Part shown: piece after piece, positions 38,770 to 54,113 of the stretch | How positions within the stretch are numbered: position 1 is the first letter of the stretch | Layout: each line of letters opens with the position of its first letter | Origin: a virus | Lineage: Duplodnaviria; Heunggongvirae; Uroviricota; Caudoviricetes | IMG/VR virus record: IMGVR_UViG_2850808358_000005 | Direction: 5' to 3' (one strand) | DNA: 64,000 bases | The notes under the pieces: generated by a model | Told to the model about the DNA's origin: nothing | Databases searched by the model: none | The model's input: the letters and a program-made list of their open reading frames with translations, nothing else | Program-made: the position numbers and the translations under genes

Positions 38770-38988
38770 ATGCAGAAACGTGACCCCGTCATCATCGCGC
38801 CAGACTATACCGATGATGAACTTTATGAGTGGATGCACCAGAAAATTCAGGCTGCGCAGGACCTGAAGTGGGCCAATGAAGCCCGGGCTAAGGAGGCCGA
38901 AAATCTGTCCGCTCAGGAGCAGGATATCACCAGGCTGGAAAAAGCAGCGGCATTAAGCATTGCCAGAATGATTACATACCAGCGTTAA
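38770..38988 (+). CDS. Small early protein (YdfC-like)
   Basis: 72-aa ORF. Confidence 0.45.
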   Translation: MQKRDPVIIAPDYTDDELYEWMHQKIQAAQDLKWANEARAKEAENLSAQEQDITRLEKAAALSIARMITYQR

Positions 38989-39106
38989 TGGCTAACCAAC
39001 GAAGCCAAGGTTGGTAATTAAGGAGTTCTCCACGGGTGAGGTGGAGTGCGTGCGCCGGACACGGGTGAGTATCCGGCATGTTCTTTAAAAATCTGAATAC
39101 CTTGAC

Positions 39107-39577
39107 TCAAAAATCATTATTGAAATTGTAGTCCATGAGATACTCATTTTTACAGGAGGGACATTGAGTTTTCGTATATTTATCGCCTTCCTCGATAGGG
39201 AAAGGTTGCAATATAGATATTGCTCTCTTCGCAAAACATTCTGGACAAAAATACATGGTAATCTTGCCAGAGCTAGTATTGCACTGTCTGGCATACACAA
39301 TCGTTCCAGTAATCAATTGGCGAGGTTCGCAGTCTTCACTTTGGAACTTAAACTTTTCTATCTCCGTGAGTTTTGCTTTGAGCGCAGCCTCATTGCTTTT
39401 AGAGATTGTCAGCTCATCAATGAGAGACAAATATTCAAGCTGAATGCTTGACAACTTAGAGTTTATTTCAGACACAGCGCGATCAACCTCAGCCTGAGTT
39501 TTTGCTTCATTGAATAATTTTAACATTGATGCAGTCTCTTTGAGAGCTGACATCGCTAATGATAGATCAAACATCAC
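39107..39577 (-). CDS. Coiled-coil + C4 zinc-ribbon protein of unknown function
   Basis: 156 aa; N-terminal heptad-rich region, C-terminal CPEC...CPSC; AT-rich; antisense to early operon. Confidence 0.5.
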   Translation of the reverse strand: MMFDLSLAMSALKETASMLKLFNEAKTQAEVDRAVSEINSKLSSIQLEYLSLIDELTISKSNEAALKAKLTEIEKFKFQSEDCEPRQLITGTIVYARQCNTSSGKITMYFCPECFAKRAISILQPFPIEEGDKYTKTQCPSCKNEYLMDYNFNNDF

Positions 39578-39877
39578 TTGCTCACTCTTCTTATTGTTGG
39601 GGTATTCAGATTATACAAATTTCTTGTTGTTGGGGAATAACAGGAACCACCTCGCCTGACGTGGTTAAAAGCAGGCACACAACACGAAAGCGCACGGCGA
39701 GGTAGCTGGTCATAGATAGCCTGTCGTTAAATTTTCGCCGACCGTGCGCTTCCGGTTGTGGCAATCCGCGAAATGGCGCGGCGGTAAGTATGGCGGGGTT
39801 TCTCCGTTCCTCGCAAATGTCCACCGGGTTGTCAGGTTGACCATACGATTAAGTGACAACCCGCCACAACATCTCCA

Positions 39878-39936
39878 GATTGAGTTGTTGGCGATGAAAC
39901 TTTTGGCGGCATCAGTTTTGCTCTGCCGCCCTTTTT
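39878..39936 (+). ncRNA. DicF-like sRNA candidate
   Basis: ...TTGGCGGCATCAGTTTTGCTCTGCCGCCCTTTTT terminator-type 3' end resembling DicF as recalled, downstream of ydfABC-like genes. Confidence 0.4.
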
Positions 39937-40338
39937 AAAGTGAATTTTGTGATGCGGTGAATGCGGCTGAGCGCACGCGGAACAGTTAAAACAGTAAGGA
40001 AAATCCCTTATTCCGGCGTTAATTGTTAACTGGTTAACGTCACCTGGAGGCACCAGGCACCGCATCAACAAAATTTATTTAATTAATTATGCGCGAATTA
40101 ACCGTTATTCGTGCAGGGGATTTCCACACCTGAAATCCGCCGCTCTTTAACAATATGAACCGGGCTGTCACGTAAACCACAATTCGGGGTGCCGCCGAAT
40201 GCCCTGATATATCCGCAGAACCGGAACGCAGGGTCGGGATGTGACTTTTTGAACAAACCAAACTGGCGGCTTCCGCCACTTGCGAGAAAACTAAATTCAG
40301 ACTAAATTATAACTCCCAATGAAAAAAGGAACACCCAT

Positions 40339-40572
40339 ATGAAAATAGAAACTATCAGCTACATCAAGAAAAACGCAGCCTCACTGGACCTGGCGGAACC
40401 CATTCTTGTCACGCAGAATGGTGTTCCTGCATACGTAATTGAATCCTATGAGCAGCAACAGGAACGCGAGAACGCTATTGCGTTACTGAAACTTCTCACT
40501 ATTTCAGAAAACGACAAGTCTGAAGGTCGCGTGTTTTCAAAAGCACAGTTGCTGGATAGCTTTAACAACTAA
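40339..40572 (+). CDS. Phd/YefM-family antitoxin
   Basis: 77 aa, MKIETISYIKKNAASLDLAEPILVTQNGVPAYVIESYEQ pattern; sigma70-like promoter TTGCGA-17-TAAATT upstream. Confidence 0.65.
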   Translation: MKIETISYIKKNAASLDLAEPILVTQNGVPAYVIESYEQQQERENAIALLKLLTISENDKSEGRVFSKAQLLDSFNN

Positions 40573-40580
40573 GGTTAACT

Positions 40581-40901
40581 ATGCAGGTTGAATACACACT
40601 TACCGCCAGAACAAGCCTTGAGCAAATTGCCGACCATCTCCGGAGTAACGACATTGACCCACGCCCTGTAATAGCAGAAATTCTTGAGCGATTTGAAACA
40701 AGAGTTACTGCATTCCCGTCCGGATGTCAGTTATGCCCGGAGTTGCTCAAGCTTGGCGTGGCTAAATACAGAGAGTGCAACACACCAGAAGGCTACAGAG
40801 TGCTGTACTCTGTCGAGGAGGATATTATCACTGCACACGTGATTCTTTCCCAACGTCAGGATATTAAACAGTTACTGTTCAGACGATTGATCAGAGTTTA
40901 G
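40581..40901 (+). CDS. ParE/RelE-superfamily toxin
   Basis: 106 aa, starts 8 bp after the antitoxin; YRVLYSVEEDIITAHVIL beta-strand pattern. Confidence 0.6.
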   Translation: MQVEYTLTARTSLEQIADHLRSNDIDPRPVIAEILERFETRVTAFPSGCQLCPELLKLGVAKYRECNTPEGYRVLYSVEEDIITAHVILSQRQDIKQLLFRRLIRV

Positions 40902-40920
40902 CAATTACACATTTAGTAGC

Positions 40921-40950
40921 GCCCCTGTCCCCACCAGTTCAGGGGTTTTT
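40921..40950 (+). terminator. Rho-independent terminator after the TA pair
   Basis: cccctg ... cagggg hairpin followed by ttttt. Confidence 0.5.
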
Positions 40951-41220
40951 GCTTTCTGATATCCGGGATATTGACAAAGCAACCTGCATTGTTGCAAGAT
41001 GATCGCACTAGAAACAGTTAAGCGGTCATCCGCACCCGATAGCCTTGCGGCTTTTTTATGCCTGAAATACGGCACATCCGTACAAAGATCGGGTGGAGAG
41101 GCGTAATACAATACCCGTAAGGGGAATATGCCCGGAGCTTCTTAACTGGCTCTAGTTGACACCCGATCACCAGCTACTAACTGGTAATCGCAGACTAAAA
41201 CAGTTAAGGAGGCCACTAAA

Positions 41221-41775
41221 ATGGCTACTATCCCTGCCCTTTCTCACCCTGACGTAACCATCGAAAATGGTCGCGCTGTCACTACGTCTGTTGCTATTGC
41301 GGAGTTCTTCGGCAAACGCCACGAACGTGTGCTGGATAAAATTCGCAATTTAGACTGCTCATCAAATTTTAACGAACACAATTTTGTGTCGGTCACCTAC
41401 ACCGACACCAAAGGCGAAAAACGCCCAATGTACCAAATCACCAAAAACGGCTTCGTTTTCCTGGTGATGGGCTTCACTGGCAAAAAAGCCGCCGCATTCA
41501 AAGAAGCCTACATTGCTGAGTTCGACCGCATGGAGGCCGAACTGCGCCAGAATAATACCCTGCCCGCTGACAAAATTATCCCGGGAGATGGCCGTACTCT
41601 CGTTGTTCACTTCGACGAACACGGCAACATCAGATTCACCGAAACCGTTCCTGACGGTGCAATGGTCTGTACCCTGGATACTTTCCAGTTTTATCTGGAA
41701 AAACAGGGGTGGGCTCTTGTAAACCGGAGCGCAATTAAAAACATGACCGTAGAGCAGTTGCTTTCCTTAAAATAA
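41221..41775 (+). CDS. Rha-family phage regulatory protein
   Basis: N-terminal ...TSVAIAEFFGKRHERVLDKIRNL... Rha domain. Confidence 0.7.
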   Translation: MATIPALSHPDVTIENGRAVTTSVAIAEFFGKRHERVLDKIRNLDCSSNFNEHNFVSVTYTDTKGEKRPMYQITKNGFVFLVMGFTGKKAAAFKEAYIAEFDRMEAELRQNNTLPADKIIPGDGRTLVVHFDEHGNIRFTETVPDGAMVCTLDTFQFYLEKQGWALVNRSAIKNMTVEQLLSLK

Positions 41776-41785
41776 AAATGGAGCT

Positions 41786-42073
41786 ATGGATATGAACCCC
41801 ATGCTTGATTATTGTTTTACACCTGCCCTCAGGCAGACCATCAGTCATACCGGGATTAAAAAATGGCTGTGGAGAATCAGAAAAATTCTCCAGCAAAAAG
41901 GTGACCCGGATTTAATACAATGTGATTACCATCTCTGCAATAAACAGTTTTTACCTGAAAAAGCTTTTACTGGCGAGCTTATTTATATGCATGGAAACAT
42001 GATTGCCAGAAAGAAACGAAAATATTGCAGTGCAGCTTGTGCCGAAAAAGACAAGATGGCACACGAACTTTAA
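41786..42073 (+). CDS. Hypothetical Cys-rich protein
   Basis: 95-aa ORF. Confidence 0.3.
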   Translation: MDMNPMLDYCFTPALRQTISHTGIKKWLWRIRKILQQKGDPDLIQCDYHLCNKQFLPEKAFTGELIYMHGNMIARKKRKYCSAACAEKDKMAHEL

Positions 42074-42099: not shown

Positions 42100-42444
42100 A
42101 TGCCAGCAATGGCAGGGATTCACTCAACCTTAAAAAAGGAAACAGCAATGAGCATTATTGAATGTGAAATTGAACTTGATGTTATTAACGATTCTCTCGC
42201 CGAATTTAAATGTGGGAATACATTACATAGTTTCATTCAGATTTCCCAAAAAGAAAACGTCACGGTAATTATTGATGACGGTTACGTTCTGGGAACATTT
42301 GATTGTTGTGTATGTGCCATTAAAGAAATTGCATTACTCACAGCTCGCATTGAAGAGGCTGACAAGAAATACGGTATCAGTTATCAACGACTGAAAGAAC
42401 TCTCTCATATCGCATCATCAGTTCGTTTCTTTTATGCAATCTGA
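42100..42444 (+). CDS. Hypothetical protein
   Basis: 114-aa ORF, probable start MSIIECEIELD. Confidence 0.3.
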   Translation: MPAMAGIHSTLKKETAMSIIECEIELDVINDSLAEFKCGNTLHSFIQISQKENVTVIIDDGYVLGTFDCCVCAIKEIALLTARIEEADKKYGISYQRLKELSHIASSVRFFYAI

Positions 42445-42467: not shown

Positions 42468-44336
42468 ATGAGCACCGATAAACAAGTTTACCCACTGTAT
42501 TACGAAGCAAAAAATGACAAAGTAAGAAAACGCCTCGGTATTAAAGGCGGTTTTTACTGGGCTGAAGCGAAAAAATTATCCATTGCCATCTCCCGTGGTG
42601 CTGTTGCGATTGACGATGCTGGCTACGATGAAGATGACTTTAAAAAACCTGTTCGCGTCAATTTGCCCGTTGTTGATGACCTCCCACCAGAAGGCGTGTT
42701 TGATACGGAATTCTGCAACCGTTACGAAAAAGGCGGGGAAGATGGCATCACAATGGTATTTATCGCATCTTCTCCCTCTGTTCAGGACAAACCAGCCAGC
42801 ACTGACAATACCAACGTCAACGGCGAAGACATGACAGAAATTGAGGAGAACATGCTCCTGCCAGTTTCCGGTCAGGAACTGCCCATTCGTTGGCTTGCGC
42901 AACACGGCAGCGAAAAACCGGTAACGCACGTTTCACGCGACGAACTCCAGGCATTACACATTGCTCGGGATGAAGAACTACCGGCTGTTACTGCTCTGGC
43001 TGTTTCGCATAAAACCAGTCTGCTCGACCCGCTGGAGATTCGCGACCTCCACAAACTCGTGCGTGATACTGACAAAGTTTTCCCTAATCCTGGCAATTCA
43101 AATCTGGGACTGATGACTGCTTTTTTCGAAGCATATCTGGATGCCAACTACACCGATCGCGGTCTGCTGACAAAAGAGTGGATGAAAGGAAATCGTGTTT
43201 CGCGTATCACTCGCACGGCTTCCGGTGCTAATGCTGGCGGCGGGAACCTCACCGATCGCGGCGAAGGTTTCGTTCACGATCTGACGTCACTGGCGCGCGA
43301 CGTAGCCACTGGCGTACTGGCTCGTTCAATGGACGTGGACATTTATAACCTTCATCCGGCACACGCTAAACGTGTCGAGGAAATTATCGCTGAAAATAAA
43401 CCGCCCTTTTCTGTTTTCCGCGACAAATTCATCACCATGCCTGGCGGGATGGATTATTCCCGCGCCATCGTGGTTGCGTCAGTGAAAGAAGCACCGATTG
43501 GTATCGAGGTCATCCCCGCGCACGTCACTGAATATCTGAACAAGGTACTGACTGAAACCGATCATGCCAACCCTGATCCGGAAATCGTGGATATTGCCTG
43601 CGGTCGCTCCTCTGCCCCGATGCCGCAACGTGTAACAGAAGAAGGAAAACAGGATGCAACTGAACATCATCAGGACACGCAGCCGCTGGATGCTCAGTCA
43701 CAGGTAAATGCTGTTGATGCGAAATATCAGAAACTGCGGACAGAACTCCATGAAGCCCGGAAAAACATTCCGCCCAAAAATCCTGTCGATGCAGACAAAT
43801 TACTGGCTGCCTCTCGCGGAGAATTTGTTGAAGGGATTAGCGACCCGAATGATTCGAAATGGATTCCCGGTCATCATATCTCCTCAAATGAAGTCAAAAA
43901 AACGGAAAATGAAGTGCGACAGACTGAAGATAAACAGCACCAGAACAGCGAACCGGAGGAGGGAACACCCTGCAATCTGACTGGCGAGGATAACTGCCCT
44001 GACTGTGGCGCGGTGATGGGAGACGCAACTTATCAGGAAACTTTTGACGAAAAAAAACCAGATGAAGCACAGGAAGAAGAGCCGAAGAAAACGGAAAAAG
44101 CTGATGATTTGTTACCGGAGAACGCTGGCAGCGATCAGCATAATGATAGCAATAATGAAACTGGCGAAGATGAACTCAACTGGAAAAGACAGGTGTTGAT
44201 TGCGGCGGTTTACGGTTTATGTGCGAATCCTGCGTGCATAGCCTATGCGCCTGCAATCCCTGACATCGCAATGATGATTGCCAACAAGCTTGAAAATTTT
44301 GGAGTGACCAGTGATGAGCGCTTACCCGATTTTTGA
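42468..44336 (+). CDS. Large early-left protein; possible RecE N-terminal-region homologue (unverified)
   Basis: 622 aa, acidic low-complexity C-terminal third, in the Rac recE position. Confidence 0.35.
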
Positions 44337-44610
44337 TCGTATTGAAGAAATGGCATGGGCTCGTCACTACCAGCAGATCGTTCGTGAAGAAAAAGAAACG
44401 GAACTGGCGGACGACCTGGAAAAAGGTCTGCCTCAGCACCTGTTTGAATCGCTCTGCATCGACCATTTGCAACGCCACGGTGCCAATAAACAGGCAATCA
44501 GCCACGCATTTGATGATGATGTTGAGTTTCAGGAGCGCATGGCAGAACACATCCGGTACATGGCTGAAACCATTGCCCACCACCAGGTTGATATTGATTT
44601 GGAGGACTAA
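44311..44610 (+). CDS. Hypothetical protein
   Basis: 99-aa ORF, probable start [15 protein letters not shown]. Confidence 0.3.
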
Positions 44611-45019
44611 AATCTATGGCGCTTTTTCAACGAGCAATAAACACACAGGCCTATCTAAAAGCAGGAATTATGGGGTTTGCTGGCGACGGCAAAACCTACA
44701 CAGCAAGCGAACTGGCTATTGGTCTGGTAATGCTTATGCGGCAACGGGGAATTGAAGCTGGTAACCGCCCGGTAATGTTTCTGGACACAGAAACAGGCTC
44801 TGACTGGGTTAAACCCCGCTTTGATGCGGAAAATATCGAATTATTTACGGCAAAAACCCGCTCGTTTGTTGATCTGCTTGAAGCCATTAATGAAGCGGAA
44901 AGCAGCGGTTCCGTAATGATCATCGACTCCATCAGTCACTTCTGGACCGGATTATGCGACGAGTATGCCAGACGCCGAAACCGTAAACGAGGACTGGAAT
45001 TTTCAGACTGGGCGTGGCT

Positions 45020-46284
45020 TGAGGTGTACTGGCAATAGCGGACACTACCATTTGTTCTTTTTTTAAGCAGCCATCTGATGATATTTTTCCCTGAAGGCTG
45101 CCGGGGAGATATTCCCCAGACGAGAGTGACGACGCTGACGATTGTAGAAAATCTCAATGTATTCCCGTATTACTGAGATGGCTTCATCCCGGTTATTAAA
45201 ACGATAGTGGCTCAGGCTCTCATTTTTCAGCGTTCCCCAGAAGCTTTCCATCGGAGCGTTGTCGTAACAGTTACCTTTACGCGACATTGATGTTTTCAGA
45301 CCAAACTGCTCCTGTATGACCCGGTAATCGTATGCGCAGTACTGTGAACCTCGATCAGAGTGGTGGATTAGCCCGGCAGGTGGGCGCTGGCTCCTGAGCG
45401 CCATAAACAGGGCTTTACCTGTCAGCTCTTTTGTCATGCGCTCTCCCATGGCGTAGCCGACAATTTCGCACGTATAAACATCTTTGATGCCAGCGAGGTA
45501 CAACCATCCCTCCTGTGTGGCAACATACGTCAGGTCCGCCACCCAGACCTGATTTGGTGCTGTAGGAGCGAACGTCTGGTTCAGCAGATTTGGCGCAACT
45601 GGCAGATTGTGGTTCGGGTTCGTAGTCGCTCTGAACTTGCGTTTCTGCTTACAGCGTAGCCTTAGCTCCTTACGAAGACGTGCCAGTCGGTCACGACCAA
45701 CGATGATGCCATTCTCTGCCAGCTCCGTCTGGAGCCGCCGGGTTCCATATGTTTCGCGAGTGCGGATATGTGCCACCTTAATCTCCAGTTTTAGCCGCTC
45801 ATCACTTTGTTTTCTGTCTGAGGGTTCATGCTGTACCCAGTTGTAATAACCGCTCCTGGATACACCAAATACCTGACACATAGCTTCAATGGGAAATTGT
45901 TGTCGCCATTGTTCGATTAACGCGTATTTTTCAGCGACTCCTGTGCAAAATACGCTGTTGCTTTTTTTTAATATATCTCGCTCAAGGCGAGCTTCATTTA
46001 ACGCCTTACGCAGTTGCAGAATTTCAGATTCCAGTTCAGCCACCGTGCGGGAACCAGGAGTACCGAGCCCTTTTCTGGCGGCGGTAACCCATTGTCCTAA
46101 AGTGCCTTCAGGAAGGGATAATCGGGAAGCGCCTTCACTGATCGAAAGTTGATTTTCAAGAACCGTTCTGACAGCTTCGGCTTTGAACTCTTTAGAGTAA
46201 CGTTGGGTTTTTCTGCTCATTATTAGCTCCTTCTGATGCCATTCTATTTCAGGAAGGAGTGTCCGTTAAACTCAGGCTACCTCA
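45020..46284 (-). mobile_element. IS600 copy 3, 1265 bp, TSD GCT
   Basis: Ends as other copies; GCT at 45017..45019 and 46285..46287; one extra A in the slippery run. Confidence 0.9.
45063..46220 (-). CDS. IS600 fused OrfAB transposase (in-frame fusion)
   Basis: 385-aa continuous ORF; A8 (45962..45969) versus A7 in the other four copies. Confidence 0.8.
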   Translation of the reverse strand: MSRKTQRYSKEFKAEAVRTVLENQLSISEGASRLSLPEGTLGQWVTAARKGLGTPGSRTVAELESEILQLRKALNEARLERDILKKSNSVFCTGVAEKYALIEQWRQQFPIEAMCQVFGVSRSGYYNWVQHEPSDRKQSDERLKLEIKVAHIRTRETYGTRRLQTELAENGIIVGRDRLARLRKELRLRCKQKRKFRATTNPNHNLPVAPNLLNQTFAPTAPNQVWVADLTYVATQEGWLYLAGIKDVYTCEIVGYAMGERMTKELTGKALFMALRSQRPPAGLIHHSDRGSQYCAYDYRVIQEQFGLKTSMSRKGNCYDNAPMESFWGTLKNESLSHYRFNNRDEAISVIREYIEIFYNRQRRHSRLGNISPAAFREKYHQMAA

Positions 46285-47020
46285 GCTCAAACAGGAGTGG
46301 CGACGCTTTACCGATCGATTTGTTAACAGTCAGGCGCACATTATTATGTGCGGGCGTGCAGGATATGAGTATGACTTTTTCGAAGGTGATGATGGCAAAC
46401 GCCAGTTGGCAAAAACCGGTATAAAAATGAAAGCAGAAACAGAAACCGGTTATGAACCCTCCATCCTGATCCAGATGGAGAAGCAAATGAACATAGAAAC
46501 CGGTCAGGTGTGGCGCACCGCCAGAATACTAAAAGATCGCTCCACCCGTATTGATGGACAGGTATTTTCAAACCCAACATTTAAAAACTTTCTTCCTCAT
46601 ATCGAGTTTCTTAACCTGGGAGGTGAACACCTCGGCATCGATACCTCACGGGATAACAGTGAATTATTTGCCAACGACGGTACACCGACATGGCTAAAAG
46701 AAAAGCGTGCAAAAGAAATCGCACTTGATGAAATTATCGAGTTGCTCAACAAGCACCATGGGGGCACCAGTAACGACGCCAAACGCGCAAAAGCTGATTT
46801 GCTGGAAAAAACATTCACCTCCCGCTCATGGGAAAGAATCAAAGGTATGGACTGGCCGACAATCAAAGCTGGTCGTAATGCACTATGGATTGAACTGGAA
46901 GGCGTTGAATATGCATTCCCGGATCCACAAACACAAAACGAAACGCAACAAGCAGGATACGATGAGAATATTCCGGTGTAAAACCAAGTGCATTTTTGGA
47001 AAATATTAATGGAGGTGTTC

Positions 47021-47185
47021 ATGTATAAAATTACAGCCACTATTGAAAAGGAAGGTGGTTCTCCTGCCAGCTGGACAAGATACTCAAAGACAAAACTAAC
47101 GAAATCAGAATGCGAAAAAAATGCTCTCAGGGGAAAAAGAAGCAGGCGCTTCCAGAGAGCAGAAAGTAAAACTGATAAATTTTAA
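47021..47185 (+). CDS. Hypothetical small protein
   Basis: GGAGG RBS before MYKITATIEKEGG... Confidence 0.3.
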   Translation: MYKITATIEKEGGSPASWTRYSKTKLTKSECEKNALRGKRSRRFQRAESKTDKF

Positions 47186-47316
47186 TTGCGAGAAACTTCA
47201 GTCCTCGTGAATTTCATTATATCCAGATTAGAACTTCATAGCTGATTATTAAAAATCAACCACACCCGCCAGTATTCTGTATATTTACTGGCGGTCATAT
47301 CGTGAGAGGTATGGCA

Positions 47317-47598
47317 ATGAATCTTGTGACACTCAAAACGTGGGGAAAACTCAGATATCCGGATAACCCACCATCAATATCAACGCTGAGACGATGGGCA
47401 AGGAATGGAAACATTTATCCTGCACCTGAACTACACGGGAGGAGTTACAGGGTGGTTCCGGAGGCTTTCTATATCAACCCAAATAAGGTTGATACCGATA
47501 TAACACACCATCAGCCTAATGGGCGACAAGGGAGAGACAGTCCGTTAATGGAGAAGTTAAAACATGCAGCGGAAAAAATACGATCCCAATTTGCCTAG
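47317..47598 (+). CDS. xis: Excisionase
   Basis: MNLVTLKTWGKLRYPDNPPSISTLRRWARNGNIYPAPE... Xis-like, overlaps int start. Confidence 0.7.
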   Translation: MNLVTLKTWGKLRYPDNPPSISTLRRWARNGNIYPAPELHGRSYRVVPEAFYINPNKVDTDITHHQPNGRQGRDSPLMEKLKHAAEKIRSQFA

Positions 47599-48640
47599 AA
47601 ACTTAACATATCGAAGGAGAGACAAAGCATATTACTGGCGCAACCCTCTGACGAAAGAAGAATTTACACTAGGTAAAATTTCAAGAAGAGATGCAGTAAC
47701 GCAGGCAATTGAAGCAAATCATTATATATACAAAAACTACTCTCCCGCTGCCTTAATTGAAAAACTTAAAGGGTTCGACTCATTTACTATGGCAGACTGG
47801 ATTGAACGTTACAAAACGATTCTTATAAGGAGAAAAGTGTCCAGAAATACTTATAAAATTCGGGCAAATCAACTGGAGACAATAAAAGAAAAATTGGGAG
47901 AGATTTTACTGACAGAAATAACCACTCGCCATATTGCCGAGTTTCTTGATTTGTGGATTGAAGGAGGGAAAAACACAATGGCAGGATCAATGCGTTCTGT
48001 GTTGTCTGATATGTTTCGCGAGGCCATTGTTGAAGGACGTATATCTCAAAATCCAGTCACGCCAACAAGAGCACCGAAAATAGTAGTTACAAGAGAACGA
48101 CTGAAACTAAAGACATACAACTGCATCAGGGAGGCAGCAGATCAACTTCCGGCATGGTTCCCATTAGCTATGGATTTAGCCCTTGTAACAGGACAACGTC
48201 GCGAAGACATAACGAATATGCGGTTCAGTGATATTTATGATGATCGTCTCCACGTCAGGCAAATTAAGACAGGAATGATGATTGCTATCCCCCTGTCACT
48301 CAGCCTTCCTGTCGCTGGTCTACGGCTTGGTACAGTAGTTGAACGATGCCGCCTGGTAAGCCGGGGAGATTATCTAATCAGTGCCGGGATTAGAAAAAAC
48401 AGCCCTGACGGCAGCATTCACCCGGATGGCCTGACAAAAAAATTTGTCGCAGCCAGAAAATTCACAGGTATCCAGTTCAGTGAAAACCCACCAACTTTTC
48501 ACGAGATCAGAAGCCTGGCTGGACGATTGTACAAAGAAACATGTGGAGAAGAATTTGCTCAGCGTCTACTTGGCCACACATCGGAGAAGACAACAAAAAT
48601 GTATCTTGATGAGAGAGAAAAAACGTACTTACTGCTCTGA
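47564..48640 (+). CDS. int: Tyrosine integrase (lambda Int family)
   Basis: 358 aa; C-terminal catalytic region ...[11 protein letters not shown]...[15 protein letters not shown]. Confidence 0.9.
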
Positions 48641-48687: not shown

Positions 48688-48788
48688 AAAAAGACCGGAA
48701 TACAGAAATTCGAGTAAATTTCGGGGAATTTCGGGGGAGACATTTGCAACTAATTGATTTCAAATGCAATTAAAAAAAGACCGAATAC
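48688..48788. repeat. Candidate att core repeats AAAAAGACCG(G)AATAC
   Basis: Motif at 48688..48703 and 48774..48788; degenerate copy at 793..807 at the start of the first ipaH repeat. Confidence 0.35.
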
Positions 48789-49242
48789 GATTCCTGTTTT
48801 CGTCAACAAACAATAAAACCCTTTAAAATTAATGCGTTGAATAAATTTACGTTCATCTTTTAATCCCTGGCACGTACCATTGCATATTAATACATTCAAC
48901 CAGTTACCATTTTTTTCGAGTTTTTTAGAGAAATTTTCGGGAATATTTCAGGTCAATCCATGCAGACGCAAGCAATTCCTGTATTGAATAATTCCGTAGC
49001 AATTATGTAAAATCATCTCCGGCTGATTTTCATTCAAACTCGCGCTATCGAACATCCATCAGCCAGCCGTGGCACGTTCTTGCATACGACGTGCTACGGT
49101 TTCCTTTACGATTTGGGGTTGCGACTTTACCTCTATTGATAATGCATTCCGGCAGAACGTTCAAATATGAAGTACGATGTTTAACTAACCGAAAAACAAG
49201 AACAATACGGTGCAAGCAAGCTATTCACAGTTAACTGAAACA

Positions 49243-49259
49243 GTATCGTTTTTTTACAG
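49243..49259 (+). promoter_or_regulatory. MxiE box, second copy
   Basis: GTATCGTTTTTTTACAG identical to the first copy. Confidence 0.8.
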
Positions 49260-49378
49260 CCAATTTTGTTTGTCCTTTTATAATAAAAAAGTTATGAAGT
49301 TCATTTCATGGAATGAACTTCATAAAAACTCCTACTTATTTCTTTTAACAAAGCCATTTGTCCATCGGCTTTAACTGA

Positions 49379-51094
49379 ATGTCCATCATGTTACCGATAA
49401 ATAATAACTTTTCATTGTCCCAAAATTCTTTTTATAACACTATTTCCGGTACATATGCTGATTACTTTTCAGCATGGGATAAATGGGAAAAACAAGCGCT
49501 CCCCGGTGAAAATCGGAATGAAGCGGTCTCCCTACTTAAAGAATGTCTCATCAATCAGTTCAGTGAGCTTCAACTGAATCGTTTAAATCTGTCCTCGCTA
49601 CCTGACAACTTACCACCTCAAATCACTGTTCTGGAAATTACTCAGAATGCCCTAATATCATTACCAGAATTGCCAGCATCGCTGGAATACCTTGACGCCT
49701 GTGACAATCACCTGTCAACACTTCCTGAATTACCCGCATCTCTGAAACATCTTGATGTAGATAACAACCAACTAACCATGCTTCCTGAATTGCCTGCATT
49801 GCTGGAATATATTAATGCAGATAACAATCAGCTAACCATGCTTCCTGAATTACCTACATCGCTGGAAGTGCTCTCAGTAAGAAATAACCAGCTGACATTT
49901 CTCCCTGAGTTACCTGAATCACTGGAAGCGCTCGATGTAAGTACTAATCTTCTGGAAAGCCTACCAGCCGTACCTGTAAGAAATCATCACTCAGAGGAAA
50001 CCGAGATATTTTTCCGGTGCCGCGAGAATCGCATCACACACATTCCGGAAAATATACTTAGCCTTGATCCGACCTGCACTATCATCCTCGAAGACAATCC
50101 TCTGTCCTCACGGATCAGGGAGTCTCTGTCGCAACAAACCGCCCAACCGGACTACCACGGCCCACGGATTTACTTCTCCATGAGTGACGGACAACAGAAT
50201 ACACTCCATCGCCCCCTGGCTGATGCCGTGACAGCATGGTTCCCGGAAAACAAACAATCTGATGTATCACAGATATGGCATGCTTTTGAACATGAAGAGC
50301 ACGCCAACACCTTTTCCGCGTTCCTTGACCGCCTTTCCGATACCGTCTCTGCACGCAATACCTCCGGATTCCGTGAACAGGTCGCTGCATGGCTGGAAAA
50401 ACTCAGTGCCTCTGCGGAGCTTCGACAGCAGTCTTTCGCTGTTGCTGCTGATGCCACTGAGAGCTGTGAGGACCGTGTCGCGCTCACATGGAACAATCTC
50501 CGGAAAACCCTCCTGGTCCATCAGGCATCTGAAGGCCTTTTCGATAATGATACCGGCGCTCTGCTCTCCCTGGGCAGGGAAATGTTCCGCCTCGAAATTC
50601 TGGAGGACATTGCCCGGGATAAAGTCAGAACTCTCCATTTTGTGGATGAGATAGAAGTCTACCTGGCCTTCCAGACCATGCTCGCAGAGAAACTTCAGCT
50701 CTCCACTGCCGTGAAGGAAATGCGTTTCTATGGCGTGTCGGGAGTGACAGCAAATGACCTCCGCACTGCCGAAGCCATGGTCAGAAGCCGTGAAGAGAAT
50801 GAATTTACGGACTGGTTCTCCCTCTGGGGACCATGGCATGCTGTACTGAAGCGTACGGAAGCTGACCGCTGGGCGCTGGCAGAAGAGCAGAAATATGAGA
50901 TGCTGGAGAATGAGTACCCTCAGAGGGTGGCTGACCGGCTGAAAGCATCAGGTCTGAGCGGTGATGCGGATGCGGAGAGGGAAGCCGGTGCACAGGTGAT
51001 GCGTGAGACTGAACAGCAGATTTACCGTCAGCTGACTGACGAGGTACTGGCCCTGCGATTGCCTGAAAACGGCTCACAACTGCACCATTCATAA
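49379..51094 (+). CDS. ipaH: IpaH-family type III effector, second identical copy
   Basis: 571-aa product identical to 1400..3115. Confidence 0.95.
   Translation: MSIMLPINNNFSLSQNSFYNTISGTYADYFSAWDKWEKQALPGENRNEAVSLLKECLINQFSELQLNRLNLSSLPDNLPPQITVLEITQNALISLPELPASLEYLDACDNHLSTLPELPASLKHLDVDNNQLTMLPELPALLEYINADNNQLTMLPELPTSLEVLSVRNNQLTFLPELPESLEALDVSTNLLESLPAVPVRNHHSEETEIFFRCRENRITHIPENILSLDPTCTIILEDNPLSSRIRESLSQQTAQPDYHGPRIYFSMSDGQQNTLHRPLADAVTAWFPENKQSDVSQIWHAFEHEEHANTFSAFLDRLSDTVSARNTSGFREQVAAWLEKLSASAELRQQSFAVAADATESCEDRVALTWNNLRKTLLVHQASEGLFDNDTGALLSLGREMFRLEILEDIARDKVRTLHFVDEIEVYLAFQTMLAEKLQLSTAVKEMRFYGVSGVTANDLRTAEAMVRSREENEFTDWFSLWGPWHAVLKRTEADRWALAEEQKYEMLENEYPQRVADRLKASGLSGDADAEREAGAQVMRETEQQIYRQLTDEVLALRLPENGSQLHHS
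49600..49969 (+). repeat. LRR-encoding tandem DNA repeats in the second ipaH
   Basis: Same as first copy. Confidence 0.7.
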
Positions 51095-51602
51095 TCACAT
51101 CGCATAAACCACAGACCGGACTGACTCCGGAAAAACAGAGGCCCGCCCCCGGGCCTCCCCGGATTCATCCGTTTCCCTGTTCAGCCTGACAGCACGCCCC
51201 GGCGGCCGGATGACAGACTCCGCTTCGGTAAGCAAAGCGGTCTTCTGTGATTCCGCCAGTTGCGGCTTATTCATTACTCAACGTCAAACGCCCGAATTGA
51301 AGCCAAATCATCCAGACTGCTCAGCTCCTCTTTCATCTCCCGCTGACGGCGATAAATCTCATCGTTGCGATCGACCTGCGCCTGCACCATTGCTGCCGCC
51401 AGTTCTTCCAGTTCCGGCATCGACAGTTTCACCTGCTGATTATCGGCATCGCTCCACGCCATATGCGTTTGTGCTGTGACAGATTTTGCCAGCATGACTA
51501 CCGGGGACAGGCGGCCCAGTGAGTCGGGGCCAGCATTCTGAGGTAGCCTGAGTTTAACGGACACTCCTTCCTGAAATAGAATGGCATCAGAAGGAGCTAA
51601 TA

Positions 51603-51905
51603 ATGAGCAGAAAAACCCAACGTTACTCTAAAGAGTTCAAAGCCGAAGCTGTCAGAACGGTTCCTGAAAATCAACTTTCGATCAGTGAAGGCGCTTCCCG
51701 ATTATCCCTTCCTGAAGGCACTTTAGGACAATGGGTTACCGCCGCCAGAAAAGGGCTCGGTACTCCTGGTTCCCGCACGGTGGCTGAACTGGAATCTGAA
51801 ATTCTGCAACTGCGTAAGGCGTTAAATGAAGCTCGCCTTGAGCGAGATATATTAAAAAAAGCAACAGCGTATTTTGCACAGGAGTCGCTGAAAAATACGC
51901 GTTAA
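51603..51905 (+). CDS. IS600 OrfA
   Basis: 100 aa (one substitution RTVPENQ). Confidence 0.9.
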   Translation: MSRKTQRYSKEFKAEAVRTVPENQLSISEGASRLSLPEGTLGQWVTAARKGLGTPGSRTVAELESEILQLRKALNEARLERDILKKATAYFAQESLKNTR

Positions 51906-51940
51906 TCGAACAATGGCGACAACAATTTCCCATTGAAGCG

Positions 51941-52759
51941 ATGTGTCAGGTATTTGGTGTATCCAGGAGCGGTTATTACAACCGGGTACAGCATGAACCC
52001 TCAGACAGAAAACAAAGTGATGAGCGGCTAAAACTGGAGATTAAGGTGGCACATATCCGCACTCGCGAAACATATGGAACCCGGCGGCTCCAGACGGAGC
52101 TGGCAGAGAATGGCATCATCGTTGGTCGTGACCGACTGGCACGTCTTCGTAAGGAGCTAAGGCTACGCTGTAAGCAGAAACGCAAGTTCAGAGCGACTAC
52201 GAACCCGAACCACAATCTGCCAGTTGCGCCAAATCTGCTGAACCAGACGTTCGCTCCTACAGCACCAAATCAGGTCTGGGTGGCGGACCTGACGTATGTT
52301 GCCACACAGGAGGGATGGTTGTACCTCGCTGGCATCAAAGATGTTTATACGTGCGAAATTGTCGGCTACGCCATGGGAGAGCGCATGACAAAAGAGCTGA
52401 CAGGTAAAGCCCTGTTTATGGCGCTCAGGAGCCAGCGCCCACCTGCCGGGCTAATCCACCACTCTGATCGAGGTTCACAGTACTGCGCATACGATTACCG
52501 GGTCATACAGGAGCAGTTTGGTCTGAAAACATCAATGTCGCGTAAAGGTAACTGTTACGACAACGCTCCGATGGAAAGCTTCTGGGGAACGCTGAAAAAT
52601 GAGAGCCTGAGCCACTATCGTTTTAATAACCGGGATGAAGCCATCTCAGTAATACGGGAATACATTGAGATTTTCTACAATCGTCAGCGTCGTCACTCTC
52701 GTCTGGGGAATATCTCCCCGGCAGCCTTCAGGGAAAAATATCATCAGATGGCTGCTTAA
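51941..52759 (+). CDS. IS600 OrfB transposase
   Basis: 272 aa. Confidence 0.9.
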   Translation: MCQVFGVSRSGYYNRVQHEPSDRKQSDERLKLEIKVAHIRTRETYGTRRLQTELAENGIIVGRDRLARLRKELRLRCKQKRKFRATTNPNHNLPVAPNLLNQTFAPTAPNQVWVADLTYVATQEGWLYLAGIKDVYTCEIVGYAMGERMTKELTGKALFMALRSQRPPAGLIHHSDRGSQYCAYDYRVIQEQFGLKTSMSRKGNCYDNAPMESFWGTLKNESLSHYRFNNRDEAISVIREYIEIFYNRQRRHSRLGNISPAAFREKYHQMAA

Positions 52760-53114
52760 AAAAAGAACAAATGGTAGTGTCCGCTATTGCCAGTACACCT
52801 CATTCCAGACACGACCGTTCCATTCAAACGTGAACGGCTTCGCCTCCTGTTCTGTGCGCCATGCTTCAATTTCCTGACGTCTGGCCTCTCTGGCCGCTTC
52901 CAGCATTTCTGGTGTCACAGTGAATGGGGCTATCTCACCCCATTTGCCACTTTGCAGTTCCTGCCAGATTTGCTGACCCGTCGGTGCGACATCATCAGCG
53001 GTGGCTGTGTAGGGGACTGCCTGGTCTCTGTCGTCAAAAAAAACGTCACAGTCTACTGCGCCACTTTCGGTATAACGGGGATTAATGATTTTTTTAATTT
53101 CCACGGTGCATTCC

Positions 53115-54113
53115 TCACGATGTGCGAATAAAAAGCCCGGGCATTGCGCCAGAGACATGTGCATCCGGCACCCCGGACAGGGCGCAATATGACCCCGGTA
53201 ATGAATGCTCTGAACATCCCGTAATGAAAAATTGTGGGGATGCTATATACGTTCCGGTGGGAGTACTGGGCACTGAAATCCCCACCGGTCCCAGTCGTGA
53301 GCCTCTGTATGACAGCCCCCTGACAAGTCTGATGACTTTATCACCGTCAGCTTCTCCCTGGTACGCAGCAATAATCAGCCCGCCAATGTCAGGGTCTCCC
53401 CATCTGTTGCGGACAGAGCTCGCCACGATTCTGTAAATAATATCTTCTGTGGTTATATTTATTTTCACCCAGTCAGTCTGGATATGGGCCAGTAGCAGTA
53501 GCGGGTGTGATAAATGGGGCCGTTAATGCCGTAAAAAGTAAGGGATTTGGCTCTGTACCGCGGTTCTATTGTCTCAGGGTGTGCATCAGTCCACCGGATG
53601 CTGAGCACCCCTTCAAACCGTGTGTCGGGTATGATGCCCTGGCGGCCAGCAACGGAATACTCACCTGGCAGCGCATTCCTTACCCAGGCCAGGAAATCAC
53701 TCTTAGTGTCAAAACGGATAACATCTTCAGGCAGAAAAGCACACCCAAAGCCGAATGCGCCGGGTATCGCCAGACGGCCTTTTGTCCGGTCGTAAATGTC
53801 GCTCTGTGCTTCCATCGTGGCCGCACTTTTCAGCCCCAGATTATCCCGGGACTTCTGTTGTGCCTTTTCGCCTGCTGCTGCGATTTCAGACAGATGGTTA
53901 GCCGTTTTCAGAGTGCCGGTCAGCGCAGCATCAATGTCATTTTTGGCCTGTTCTGCTGCGCGGGCATAACCTGCGGCTGCCTGTGCACGCTGACCGGATA
54001 AGACGGCGTTTTTCCCCGTGCTTTTCACGTCTTCCGCTGTGGCCTTTCTGTTCTCAGCTGTGACGGTTGCATCCTGTCGGGCTTTCTCCGCAAAACGTTG
54101 TGCATCATCACGG
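53115..54113 (-). pseudogene. Side tail-fibre gene fragment, 5'-truncated by IS600 copy 5, internal stop
   Basis: ORFs 53465..54145 and 53115..53468 share ...AAAGYARAAEQAKNDIDAALTGTLKT... with 5495..6400. Confidence 0.6.

Follow-up and report, generated by a model that had tools for sequence, protein, structure and literature searches.

A nuclease-less RecE-family gene, gam and an IS600-split RecA-fold ATPase gene in the virus record IMGVR_UViG_2850808358_000005

Genes of the module

The DNA analysed here is a 64,000-nucleotide stretch of IMG/VR virus record IMGVR_UViG_2850808358_000005 (Caudoviricetes), hereafter called the window, and three consecutive genes on its plus strand are the subject of this work. 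The first (42468-44336) encodes a 622-aa protein of the RecE family (PF06630, phrog_607) without a nuclease domain. The second (44314-44610) is a lambda-type gam gene encoding 98 aa (PF06064, phrog_259). The third encodes a P-loop ATPase and is divided by a copy of the insertion sequence (IS) IS600; its 5' part (44616-45019) holds codons 1-134 plus 2 nt, with the Walker A (GDGKT) and Walker B (MIIDS) motifs, and its 3' part (46288-46981) holds the remaining RecA core and a C-terminal helical domain, down to the stop codon. All the features named in an earlier note on this DNA were found where it had placed them; it had overlooked gam, which sits between the RecE-like and the ATPase open reading frames (ORFs). 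The best explanation, which we consider probable, is that the region serves as the recombination (Rec) module of a Rac-like lambdoid prophage in Shigella boydii and lies where the early-left operon of that prophage ends. Database records of the exact 622-aa protein, and of the 140-aa product left by IS truncation of the ATPase gene, exist only for S. boydii, and the 622-aa allele has 2 database members only.

The gam product matched PF06064 over profile positions 1-97 of 98 (E 8.1e-56) and phrog_259 (E 5.5e-54), and the gene is 87% identical to lambda gam at the nucleotide level from 44356 to 44612. The ORF opens at a GTG codon at 44311, the start annotated by PGAP in the related E. coli locus L004 maps to 44314, and gam shares its first 23-26 nt with the end of the RecE-like gene. 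Lambda-type Gam proteins are inhibitors of RecBCD, and the product of this gene would be expected to block the RecBCD of the host. The arrangement is like that of lambda Red in that gam leads the recombinase genes in both. It is different in that one RecA-fold ATPase stands in the place of Bet and Exo, and no exonuclease is encoded in the window module.

A RecE-family protein without the nuclease domain

The earlier note had suggested that the 622-aa protein resembles the N-terminal region of Rac RecE, and this was borne out by profile searches and alignment. The protein matched the Pfam family PF06630 (Exonuc_VIII) at residues 52-189 (E 1.1e-36; score 127 bits, cutoff 25). Its match to PHROG 607 spans positions 1-622 of the 883 in the profile (E 5.8e-243). 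Over 91% of its length it has 82-84% identity to RecE proteins of 884 aa in which PF06630 and PF12684 are both present. When long and short forms were aligned together, the similarity to the long RecE forms ended at about residue 567. This break point matches the boundary published for the nuclease part of RecE, a PD-(D/E)XK domain formed by residues 564-866 (PMC11611040). The absence of nuclease motifs that the earlier note had remarked on also held, as the Pfam search gave no match to the nuclease domain PF12684 at E <= 0.1 and the PDB search gave no match at E <= 1, even though the structure of the RecE nuclease has been solved (3H4R).

The window protein is thus comparable to Rac RecE in its homologous N-terminal region (window residues 1-567) and in its operon position, after kil/ydaE/racC-like genes and before a gene for a DUF1187 protein and the excisionase and integrase genes (xis-int). 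It differs in being without the PD-(D/E)XK domain (PF12684, 3H4R), which is the sole part of RecE with a known activity, in carrying a tail of 55 aa that is absent from RecE, and in being followed by gam and an AAA_24 ATPase gene and not by recT. The usual pairing with recT was not found in the window; in the relative locus L010, RecE is followed by RecT. The nuclease domain alone is sufficient genetically in place of RecE, and no function has been assigned in the literature to the N-terminal region (PMC11611040). Full-length RecE is reported in that article, with reference to Fu et al. 2012, to improve linear-linear recombination, so that the N-terminal region does have an influence on recombination.

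Two local peculiarities of the window protein came to light in these alignments. The window copy has a gap of 24 residues where all the relatives aligned have DDEEKPQPSCAMADEQATAETVEP. The gap is a 72-bp in-frame deletion, private to the window allele and situated in an acidic low-complexity linker. Its junction lies at a 9-bp sequence (43648-43656, plus strand) that relatives have twice, once on either side of the segment missing here, and in a blastn comparison with L004 the query positions 1249-1257 aligned twice, the subject having 72 extra bases. The other peculiarity is that in the window protein and the 646-aa subgroup of relatives CNLT replaces the first CxxC of a CxxC-x7-8-CPDC motif (~43890-43940, aa 498-515), which in other RecE-N forms makes up a zinc-ribbon-like element. 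Taken together, the deletion and the lack of the first CxxC in the 646-aa subgroup indicate that some local degeneration is possible.

Short RecE forms as a conserved family

The window protein was aligned with its long and short relatives. They are nearly identical up to about residue 567 and then take one of three mutually unrelated continuations: a PD-(D/E)XK domain in forms of 884-1048 aa, a DEDDh 3'-5' exonuclease domain (PF16473) in forms of about 800-814 aa, or a tail of 52-55 aa in forms of 646-683 aa and in the window protein. Each form also has its own set of following genes, in the same slot of otherwise syntenic prophages. The RecE-PDDEXK form has RecT downstream, and the RecE-DEDDh form has xis-int directly downstream. 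The short form is followed either by Gam, Bet (PF03837) and YqaJ/Exo, or by Gam and the AAA_24 ATPase, the latter arrangement being found in the window and in ten E. coli genomes. These four partner sets at one position represent classic lambdoid mosaicism with the exchange point at the domain boundary, and the module type seen in the window probably arose by such an exchange at about residue 567.

Short forms of 646-683 aa with the same C-terminal tail were found in E. coli, Shigella, E. albertii and inducible Shiga toxin (Stx) phages. The 682-aa gp06 protein of Stx phage 75/02, for instance, aligns with the window protein over residues 1-612 with 54% identity and has the tail in common. Pairwise ratios of nonsynonymous to synonymous substitution rates (dN/dS) were calculated for five short-form genes (window, two from E. 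coli, E. albertii and Stx phage 75/02) and were 0.24-0.30 over the whole gene, with dS values of up to 1.2-1.4; for the tail alone the ratios were 0.13-0.32. A HMMER scan of 1.84 billion cluster representatives yielded 222 relatives, and the 83 of these with at least 450 aa, representing clusters at 50% identity, were sorted with phmmer seeds. The tail was present in 22, the PDDEXK domain in 19, the DEDDh domain in 14, and none of the three in 28. The spread of the tail and the low dN/dS at high dS indicate that the short-form architecture is old and under selection, and not the outcome of a recent loss.

A sample of the 28 representatives with none of the three, searched against Pfam, mostly contained PF06630 alone or nothing. 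One cluster representative of 703 aa (P0242) is a fusion of RecE-N and RecT in a single ORF, with PF03837 at aa 528-678 and without a nuclease, and is another route to loss of the nuclease domain.

The PGAP annotation of the orthologous E. coli ORF in L004 is that of a pseudogene, "incomplete; missing C-terminus". The data presented here argue that this label is wrong for the short RecE family. More generally, annotation pipelines flag short RecE-family genes as pseudogenes, and the conservation seen here indicates a real family with its own C-terminal signature, one that is relevant to an old question, the function of the 560 residues at the N-terminus of RecE.

A recent survey described, under the name RecE-2, RecE-related proteins of lambdoid Rec modules that do not have the nuclease fold and whose roles are unknown, and also noted DnaQ-like nucleases in Rec modules (Genome Res 2025, PMC12315714). 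The latter fit the DEDDh form of the RecE-N proteins. The window protein is likewise RecE-related, nuclease-less and encoded in an early-left operon, a likeness drawn from the published description of RecE-2 only. The window allele differs from RecE-2, from gp06 and from the YdfE-like relatives by its 24-aa deletion, and the acidic PDF tip described below is a feature of the E. coli clade and not of the Stx-phage or distant members. In Enterobacter asburiae (L021, positions 2056-4165) a 638-aa protein annotated with the Pfam families YdfE_N and YdfE_C is followed by a 54-aa ORF with the tail motif, which suggests that the distant short forms are equivalent to the Qin prophage's YdfE family.

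The C-terminal tail and its acidic tip

In the window protein the tail comprises aa 568-622 (55 aa; 44169-44333, plus strand) and replaces the RecE nuclease. It is a two-helix element that contains the motif AAxxGxCANP, a feature defined in the present analysis, and terminates in DERLPDF. Members of the tail class often have an overall identity of only 20-35% to the window protein, and the tail is always at the extreme C-terminus. The window protein and the 22 divergent members have in common an invariant core, A-A-x-x-G-x-C-x-N-P, and the consensus is LTYxQQLTIAALQGLCANPA...DDIPxMA. The unannotated phrog_26058 matched 21 of the 23 tails, and searches of Pfam and the PDB with the tail sequences or a tail profile gave nothing meaningful. 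Searching a large protein database with the tail profile returned 20 short fragments or split ORFs only, among them the 54-aa Enterobacter ORF mentioned above, and no independent family of stand-alone tail domains emerged from it.

Two possible accounts of the tail were considered and rejected. An origin from the lambda DNA upstream of gam (GamL/kil) does not agree with the blastn similarity to lambda, which starts inside gam at 44356, and a tblastn search of lambda with the tail found nothing. A general function as a docking element for Gam does not agree with the seven distant loci in which no gam was recognised downstream of the tail-bearing protein.

A conserved acidic tip, (D/S)DE(R/H/Y)(L/I/M)P(D/N)F, closes the short forms from E. 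coli, Shigella and E. albertii, and in the window it falls within the last 13 codons (44295-44333). The C-terminal DDDIPF tail of SSB, the protein that binds single-stranded DNA, recruits many genome-maintenance proteins. In phage HK620 the NDYPPF tail of the SSB is needed by the annealing protein Sak4 (PMC5928155). The acidic tip resembles both of these tails by sequence, and we take this as a lead only. With low confidence, the RecE-like protein may be regarded as a non-catalytic scaffold that acts at DNA ends or on host factors.

Insertion of IS600 and restoration of the ATPase gene

The element that interrupts the ATPase gene is an IS600 (IS3 family) of 1265 bp at 45020-46284 on the minus strand. 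Five copies of IS600 are present in the window, starting at 4150, 8606, 45020, 51539 and 54114, of which this is the third, as numbered in the earlier note. Its inverted ends are TGAGGTGTACTGGCA.../...ACTCAGGCTACCTCA, the same as in the four other copies. It is flanked by a 3-bp target-site duplication, GCT, at 45017-45019 on the left and at 46285-46287 on the right, and the intact allele has a single GCT.

The ORF that contains the Walker A sequence GFAGDGKTYTA, recognised in the earlier note as part of a P-loop ATPase, extends from 44616 to 45038. Removing IS600 and one GCT in silico gave an ORF of 364 codons, and the restored gene was identical at 1098 of 1098 nucleotides to the intact allele of E. 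coli FDAARGOS_943, which has the single GCT at the junction. The proposal of a clean split by IS600 with a restorable frame was therefore correct. Because the duplication is 3 bp long, the frame is restored even if both GCT copies are kept. The complete identity to the intact allele indicates that the insertion was precise and very recent, and that no later decay has occurred.

The copy at 45020 has the terminal inverted repeats, the 3-bp duplication, the orfA/orfB content and the length of about 1264 bp that are typical of IS600 in Shigella genomes, and it has multiple near-identical copies in the window. It deviates in being 1265 bp long and in having its two reading frames fused. The other four copies are 1264 bp long and differ from one another by 0-2 mismatches, and all five are 0-2 mismatches plus one indel apart. 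These small differences indicate that IS600 expanded recently, and they agree with the recent spread of IS elements that Shigella typically shows. The indel is one extra base in a slippery run (~45955-45963), which reads T8 (A8 on the transposase strand) and is T7 in the other four copies. In this copy OrfA and OrfB are contiguous in a single transposase ORF of 385 aa (45063-46220, minus strand). The fusion mimics the product of a programmed -1 frameshift; it may reflect either a transposase that is fused constitutively or a sequencing error in the homopolymer.

The ATPase as a candidate recombinase

The restored ATPase matched Pfam AAA_24 (PF13479) at residues 14-187 with 52.5 bits, above the cutoff of 27. 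It also matched PHROG 1366, which is listed as of unknown function (E 1.1e-79), and, more weakly, the Sak4-like phrog_124 at aa 9-167 (E 1e-8). Members of this family are about 365 aa long, are 60-87% identical across Enterobacterales, Pseudomonas, Achromobacter and other beta-proteobacteria, and have invariant residues extending to about position 343. An AlphaFold2 model with a predicted local distance difference test score (pLDDT) of 82.7 has a RecA-type core (aa 15-230) and a C-terminal helical domain (aa 233-340). The best structural matches were RecA, RAD51 paralogs, UvsX, DMC1 and Sak4, and those among the viral structures of BFVD were AAA-domain proteins, several of them named RecA-like recombinases. 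The core of the restored ATPase thus has the RecA/Rad51 fold, and both Walker motifs, A and B, are present.

Gene order gives further indications. The inducible Cronobacter phage phiES15 has the order kil-gam-ATPase(366 aa)-hyp-methylase-xis-int, and no other annealing protein was found in the stretch examined, which leaves the ATPase as the sole candidate recombinase after gam. The gam-ATPase pair of phiES15 (gp08-gp07) is in the same place before xis-int as in the window, and its ATPase is 84.7% identical over the full length to the restored one. In phiES15, however, the ATPase is intact and no RecE-like gene lies upstream of gam. In two Achromobacter prophages (L012 and L013) an SSB gene directly follows the ATPase gene and overlaps it, and adjacency to an SSB gene is a hallmark of Sak4 (PMC5928155).

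Sak4 proteins are annealing proteins with a RecA core, known from HK620 and from staphylococcal phages (PDB 8rc5). They are about 220-245 aa long, as compared with 364 aa for the window ATPase, which also has the extra helical domain and is encoded in a module without a cognate SSB gene. The published definition of Sak4 is a length of <290 aa and no extra domain (Lopes et al. 2010, PMC2896510). Since the window protein is longer than 290 aa and has no significant similarity to HK620 Sak4, we describe it as related to Sak4 and not as a member. It is a RecA-fold protein that probably acts in ATP-dependent annealing or recombination.

Interpretation of the module

The module consists of genes for a nuclease-less RecE-family protein, Gam and a 364-aa ATPase. 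The RecE-like gene is an intact and selected gene whose product may have an accessory or scaffold role at DNA ends, not a catalytic one. The ATPase gene fills the slot taken by Bet-Exo or RecT in sister prophages. Its product is probably the recombinase of the module, one that would anneal single strands in an ATP-dependent way and, as a longer relative of Sak4, would work on SSB-coated single-stranded DNA. A very recent transposition of IS600 into a GCT site split the gene after codon 134, with Gam and the RecE-like gene still open. Since the ATPase gene is interrupted at this codon, the module in the window is without its presumed recombinase.

Several observations weigh against parts of this interpretation. 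The ATPase, at 364 aa, exceeds the <290-aa limit of Sak4 and has a C-terminal helical domain that the Sak4 definition does not allow. Its comparison with HK620 Sak4 was not significant (BLASTP E 0.11, hhalign probability 0.5%), no SSB gene adjoins the ATPase gene in the window (nor in L004 or phiES15), and AAA_24 is a broad family, some phage relatives being annotated as helicases or DarB-like antirestriction proteins. For the RecE-like protein, an AlphaFold2 model built from a 20-sequence alignment was unusable (pLDDT 29.7, predicted template modelling score 0.21) and so gives no structural handle on its function; the possible local degeneration noted above belongs here as well. Finally, the tail-bearing protein is on its own in seven distant loci of Citrobacter, Lelliottia, Buttiauxella and Cedecea, where only small ORFs, xis and int come after it and no gam, annealing protein or nuclease was recognised downstream. 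The tail is therefore not an adaptor specific to Gam or Exo, and the idea of a dedicated recombination accessory is weakened.

These seven loci also support the possibility that the short RecE-like protein lies outside the recombination machinery altogether and serves an early-operon purpose of its own, for example in host takeover or anti-defence, sharing only its ancestry with RecE-N. The joining of the N-region to two unrelated exonuclease domains, or to none, likewise suggests a self-contained RecE-N module. However, the RecE-like gene is translationally overlapped with gam in E. coli-type phages, and the enhancement of linear-linear recombination by full-length RecE, as far as it is reported in PMC11611040 from Fu et al. 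2012, connects the N-region with recombination. We take this possibility seriously but tend to doubt it. A function other than recombination is unlikely for the ATPase. Distant phage relatives annotated as DNA helicase, DarB-like antirestriction protein or ATP-binding protein, the "unknown function" of PHROG 1366 and the insignificant direct similarity to the characterised HK620 Sak4 would allow it to be a helicase or loader, a DarB-like anti-restriction protein or a defence or counter-defence NTPase, its adjacency to gam being a coincidence of mosaicism. Yet the top structural matches are strand-exchange or annealing proteins, the Pfam search detected no helicase accessory domains, the gene is found in place of Bet-Exo or RecT at one and the same locus and is the only candidate recombinase after gam in phiES15, and an SSB gene overlaps it in the Achromobacter prophages.

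The least probable of these alternatives is that the 622-aa ORF is a pseudogene, a RecE shorn of its C-terminal nuclease and decaying alongside the IS-hit ATPase, in line with the PGAP label and with the decayed module of the earlier note. The PGAP label on the E. coli ortholog, the private deletion, the absence of one CxxC knuckle in the window subgroup and the IS-ridden, rearranged prophage around the ORF all point that way. The deletion is nevertheless in frame and confined to the acidic linker, the frame has stayed open over 620-680 codons in lineages as divergent as the dS values indicate, both the whole gene and its non-RecE tail have low dN/dS, the tail is kept, always C-terminal, in 22 of 83 divergent representatives, and the short form occurs in functional Stx phages. 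For the short RecE family as a whole the pseudogene explanation is largely refuted, and we consider it very improbable for this ORF. Of the two options in the earlier note, a truncated or a repurposed RecE, repurposing is accordingly the better one, given the tail-bearing family and its dN/dS. The description of the module as decayed is fair for the prophage, which is IS-ridden and rearranged, and for the ATPase, which is interrupted and is the only one of the three genes inactivated; it does not apply to the RecE-like gene as a class.

A more far-reaching and improbable reading is that the nuclease-less RecE-N proteins, recognisable by the AAxxGxCANP tail, have an autonomous and selected function in phages and could act as a hub at DNA ends, with the SSB-like tip of the E. 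coli/Shigella clade recruiting partners, and that the ATPases of about 365 aa are a new, longer class of recombinase replacing Bet-Exo. The recruited partners could be SSB-binding host enzymes or a phage annealing protein. If true, such a hub would explain both the boost that full-length RecE gives to linear-linear recombination and the pairing of the N-region with a PDDEXK nuclease, a DEDDh nuclease or none.

The components of the module are in public databases under generic names, and their gene order, mosaic Rec modules, nuclease-less RecE relatives, Sak4-like ATPases and IS600 insertions were already known. The present analysis adds a defined tail motif, evidence that the short RecE family is under selection, and arguments for a long class of RecA-fold recombinases. 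The highly conserved RecA-fold ATPase of about 365 aa, found at the recombinase position in lambdoid prophages and in others of proteobacteria, could be of use in recombineering as a new tool for annealing or strand exchange, and an intact allele is easy to obtain. For the host genome the finding is of little import, being a further case of IS600-driven prophage decay in Shigella.

Prophage context

Downstream of the ATPase gene, on the plus strand, are genes for a DUF1187 protein (46988-47185; PF06688, E 6.9e-18), an excisionase (47302-47598; PF07825, E 8e-14) and an integrase (47564-48640). The same order was found in the relative loci L004, L005 and L010, and this succession (46988-48640) places the module at the distal end of the early-left operon. 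Upstream, also on the plus strand, are a truncated gene for a Rha regulator (41221-41775), a YdaE-like ORF (41786-42073) and a phrog_2434 ORF (42100-42444).

The surrounding prophage is rearranged when compared with that of E. coli FDAARGOS_943. The Rha regulator is truncated at its N-terminus, with 184 aa as compared with 283 aa in relatives, the first ~100 residues being lost to a 1.1-kb replacement. This segment (40073-41220) stands where the E. coli prophage has 327 bp, and it carries two small ORFs (40339-40572 and 40581-40901) whose products, judged by eye, resemble an antitoxin of the Phd/YefM type and a toxin of the RelE/ParE type. A further insertion of about 1.07 kb relative to the same prophage (38835-39900) carries an ORF of 156 aa (39107-39577, minus strand) with a coiled-coil-like N-terminal half and CxxC...CxxC motifs.

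Beyond the integrase gene lies an ipaH gene of 571 aa (49379-51094). It is part of a block of about 5 kb that is doubled in direct orientation (792-6005 and 48771-53981), about 48 kb apart and bracketing the prophage, and the other block has its own 571-aa ipaH gene at 1400-3115. The two blocks are 99.9% identical over 2.77 kb, and IS600 is inserted at a different point in each.

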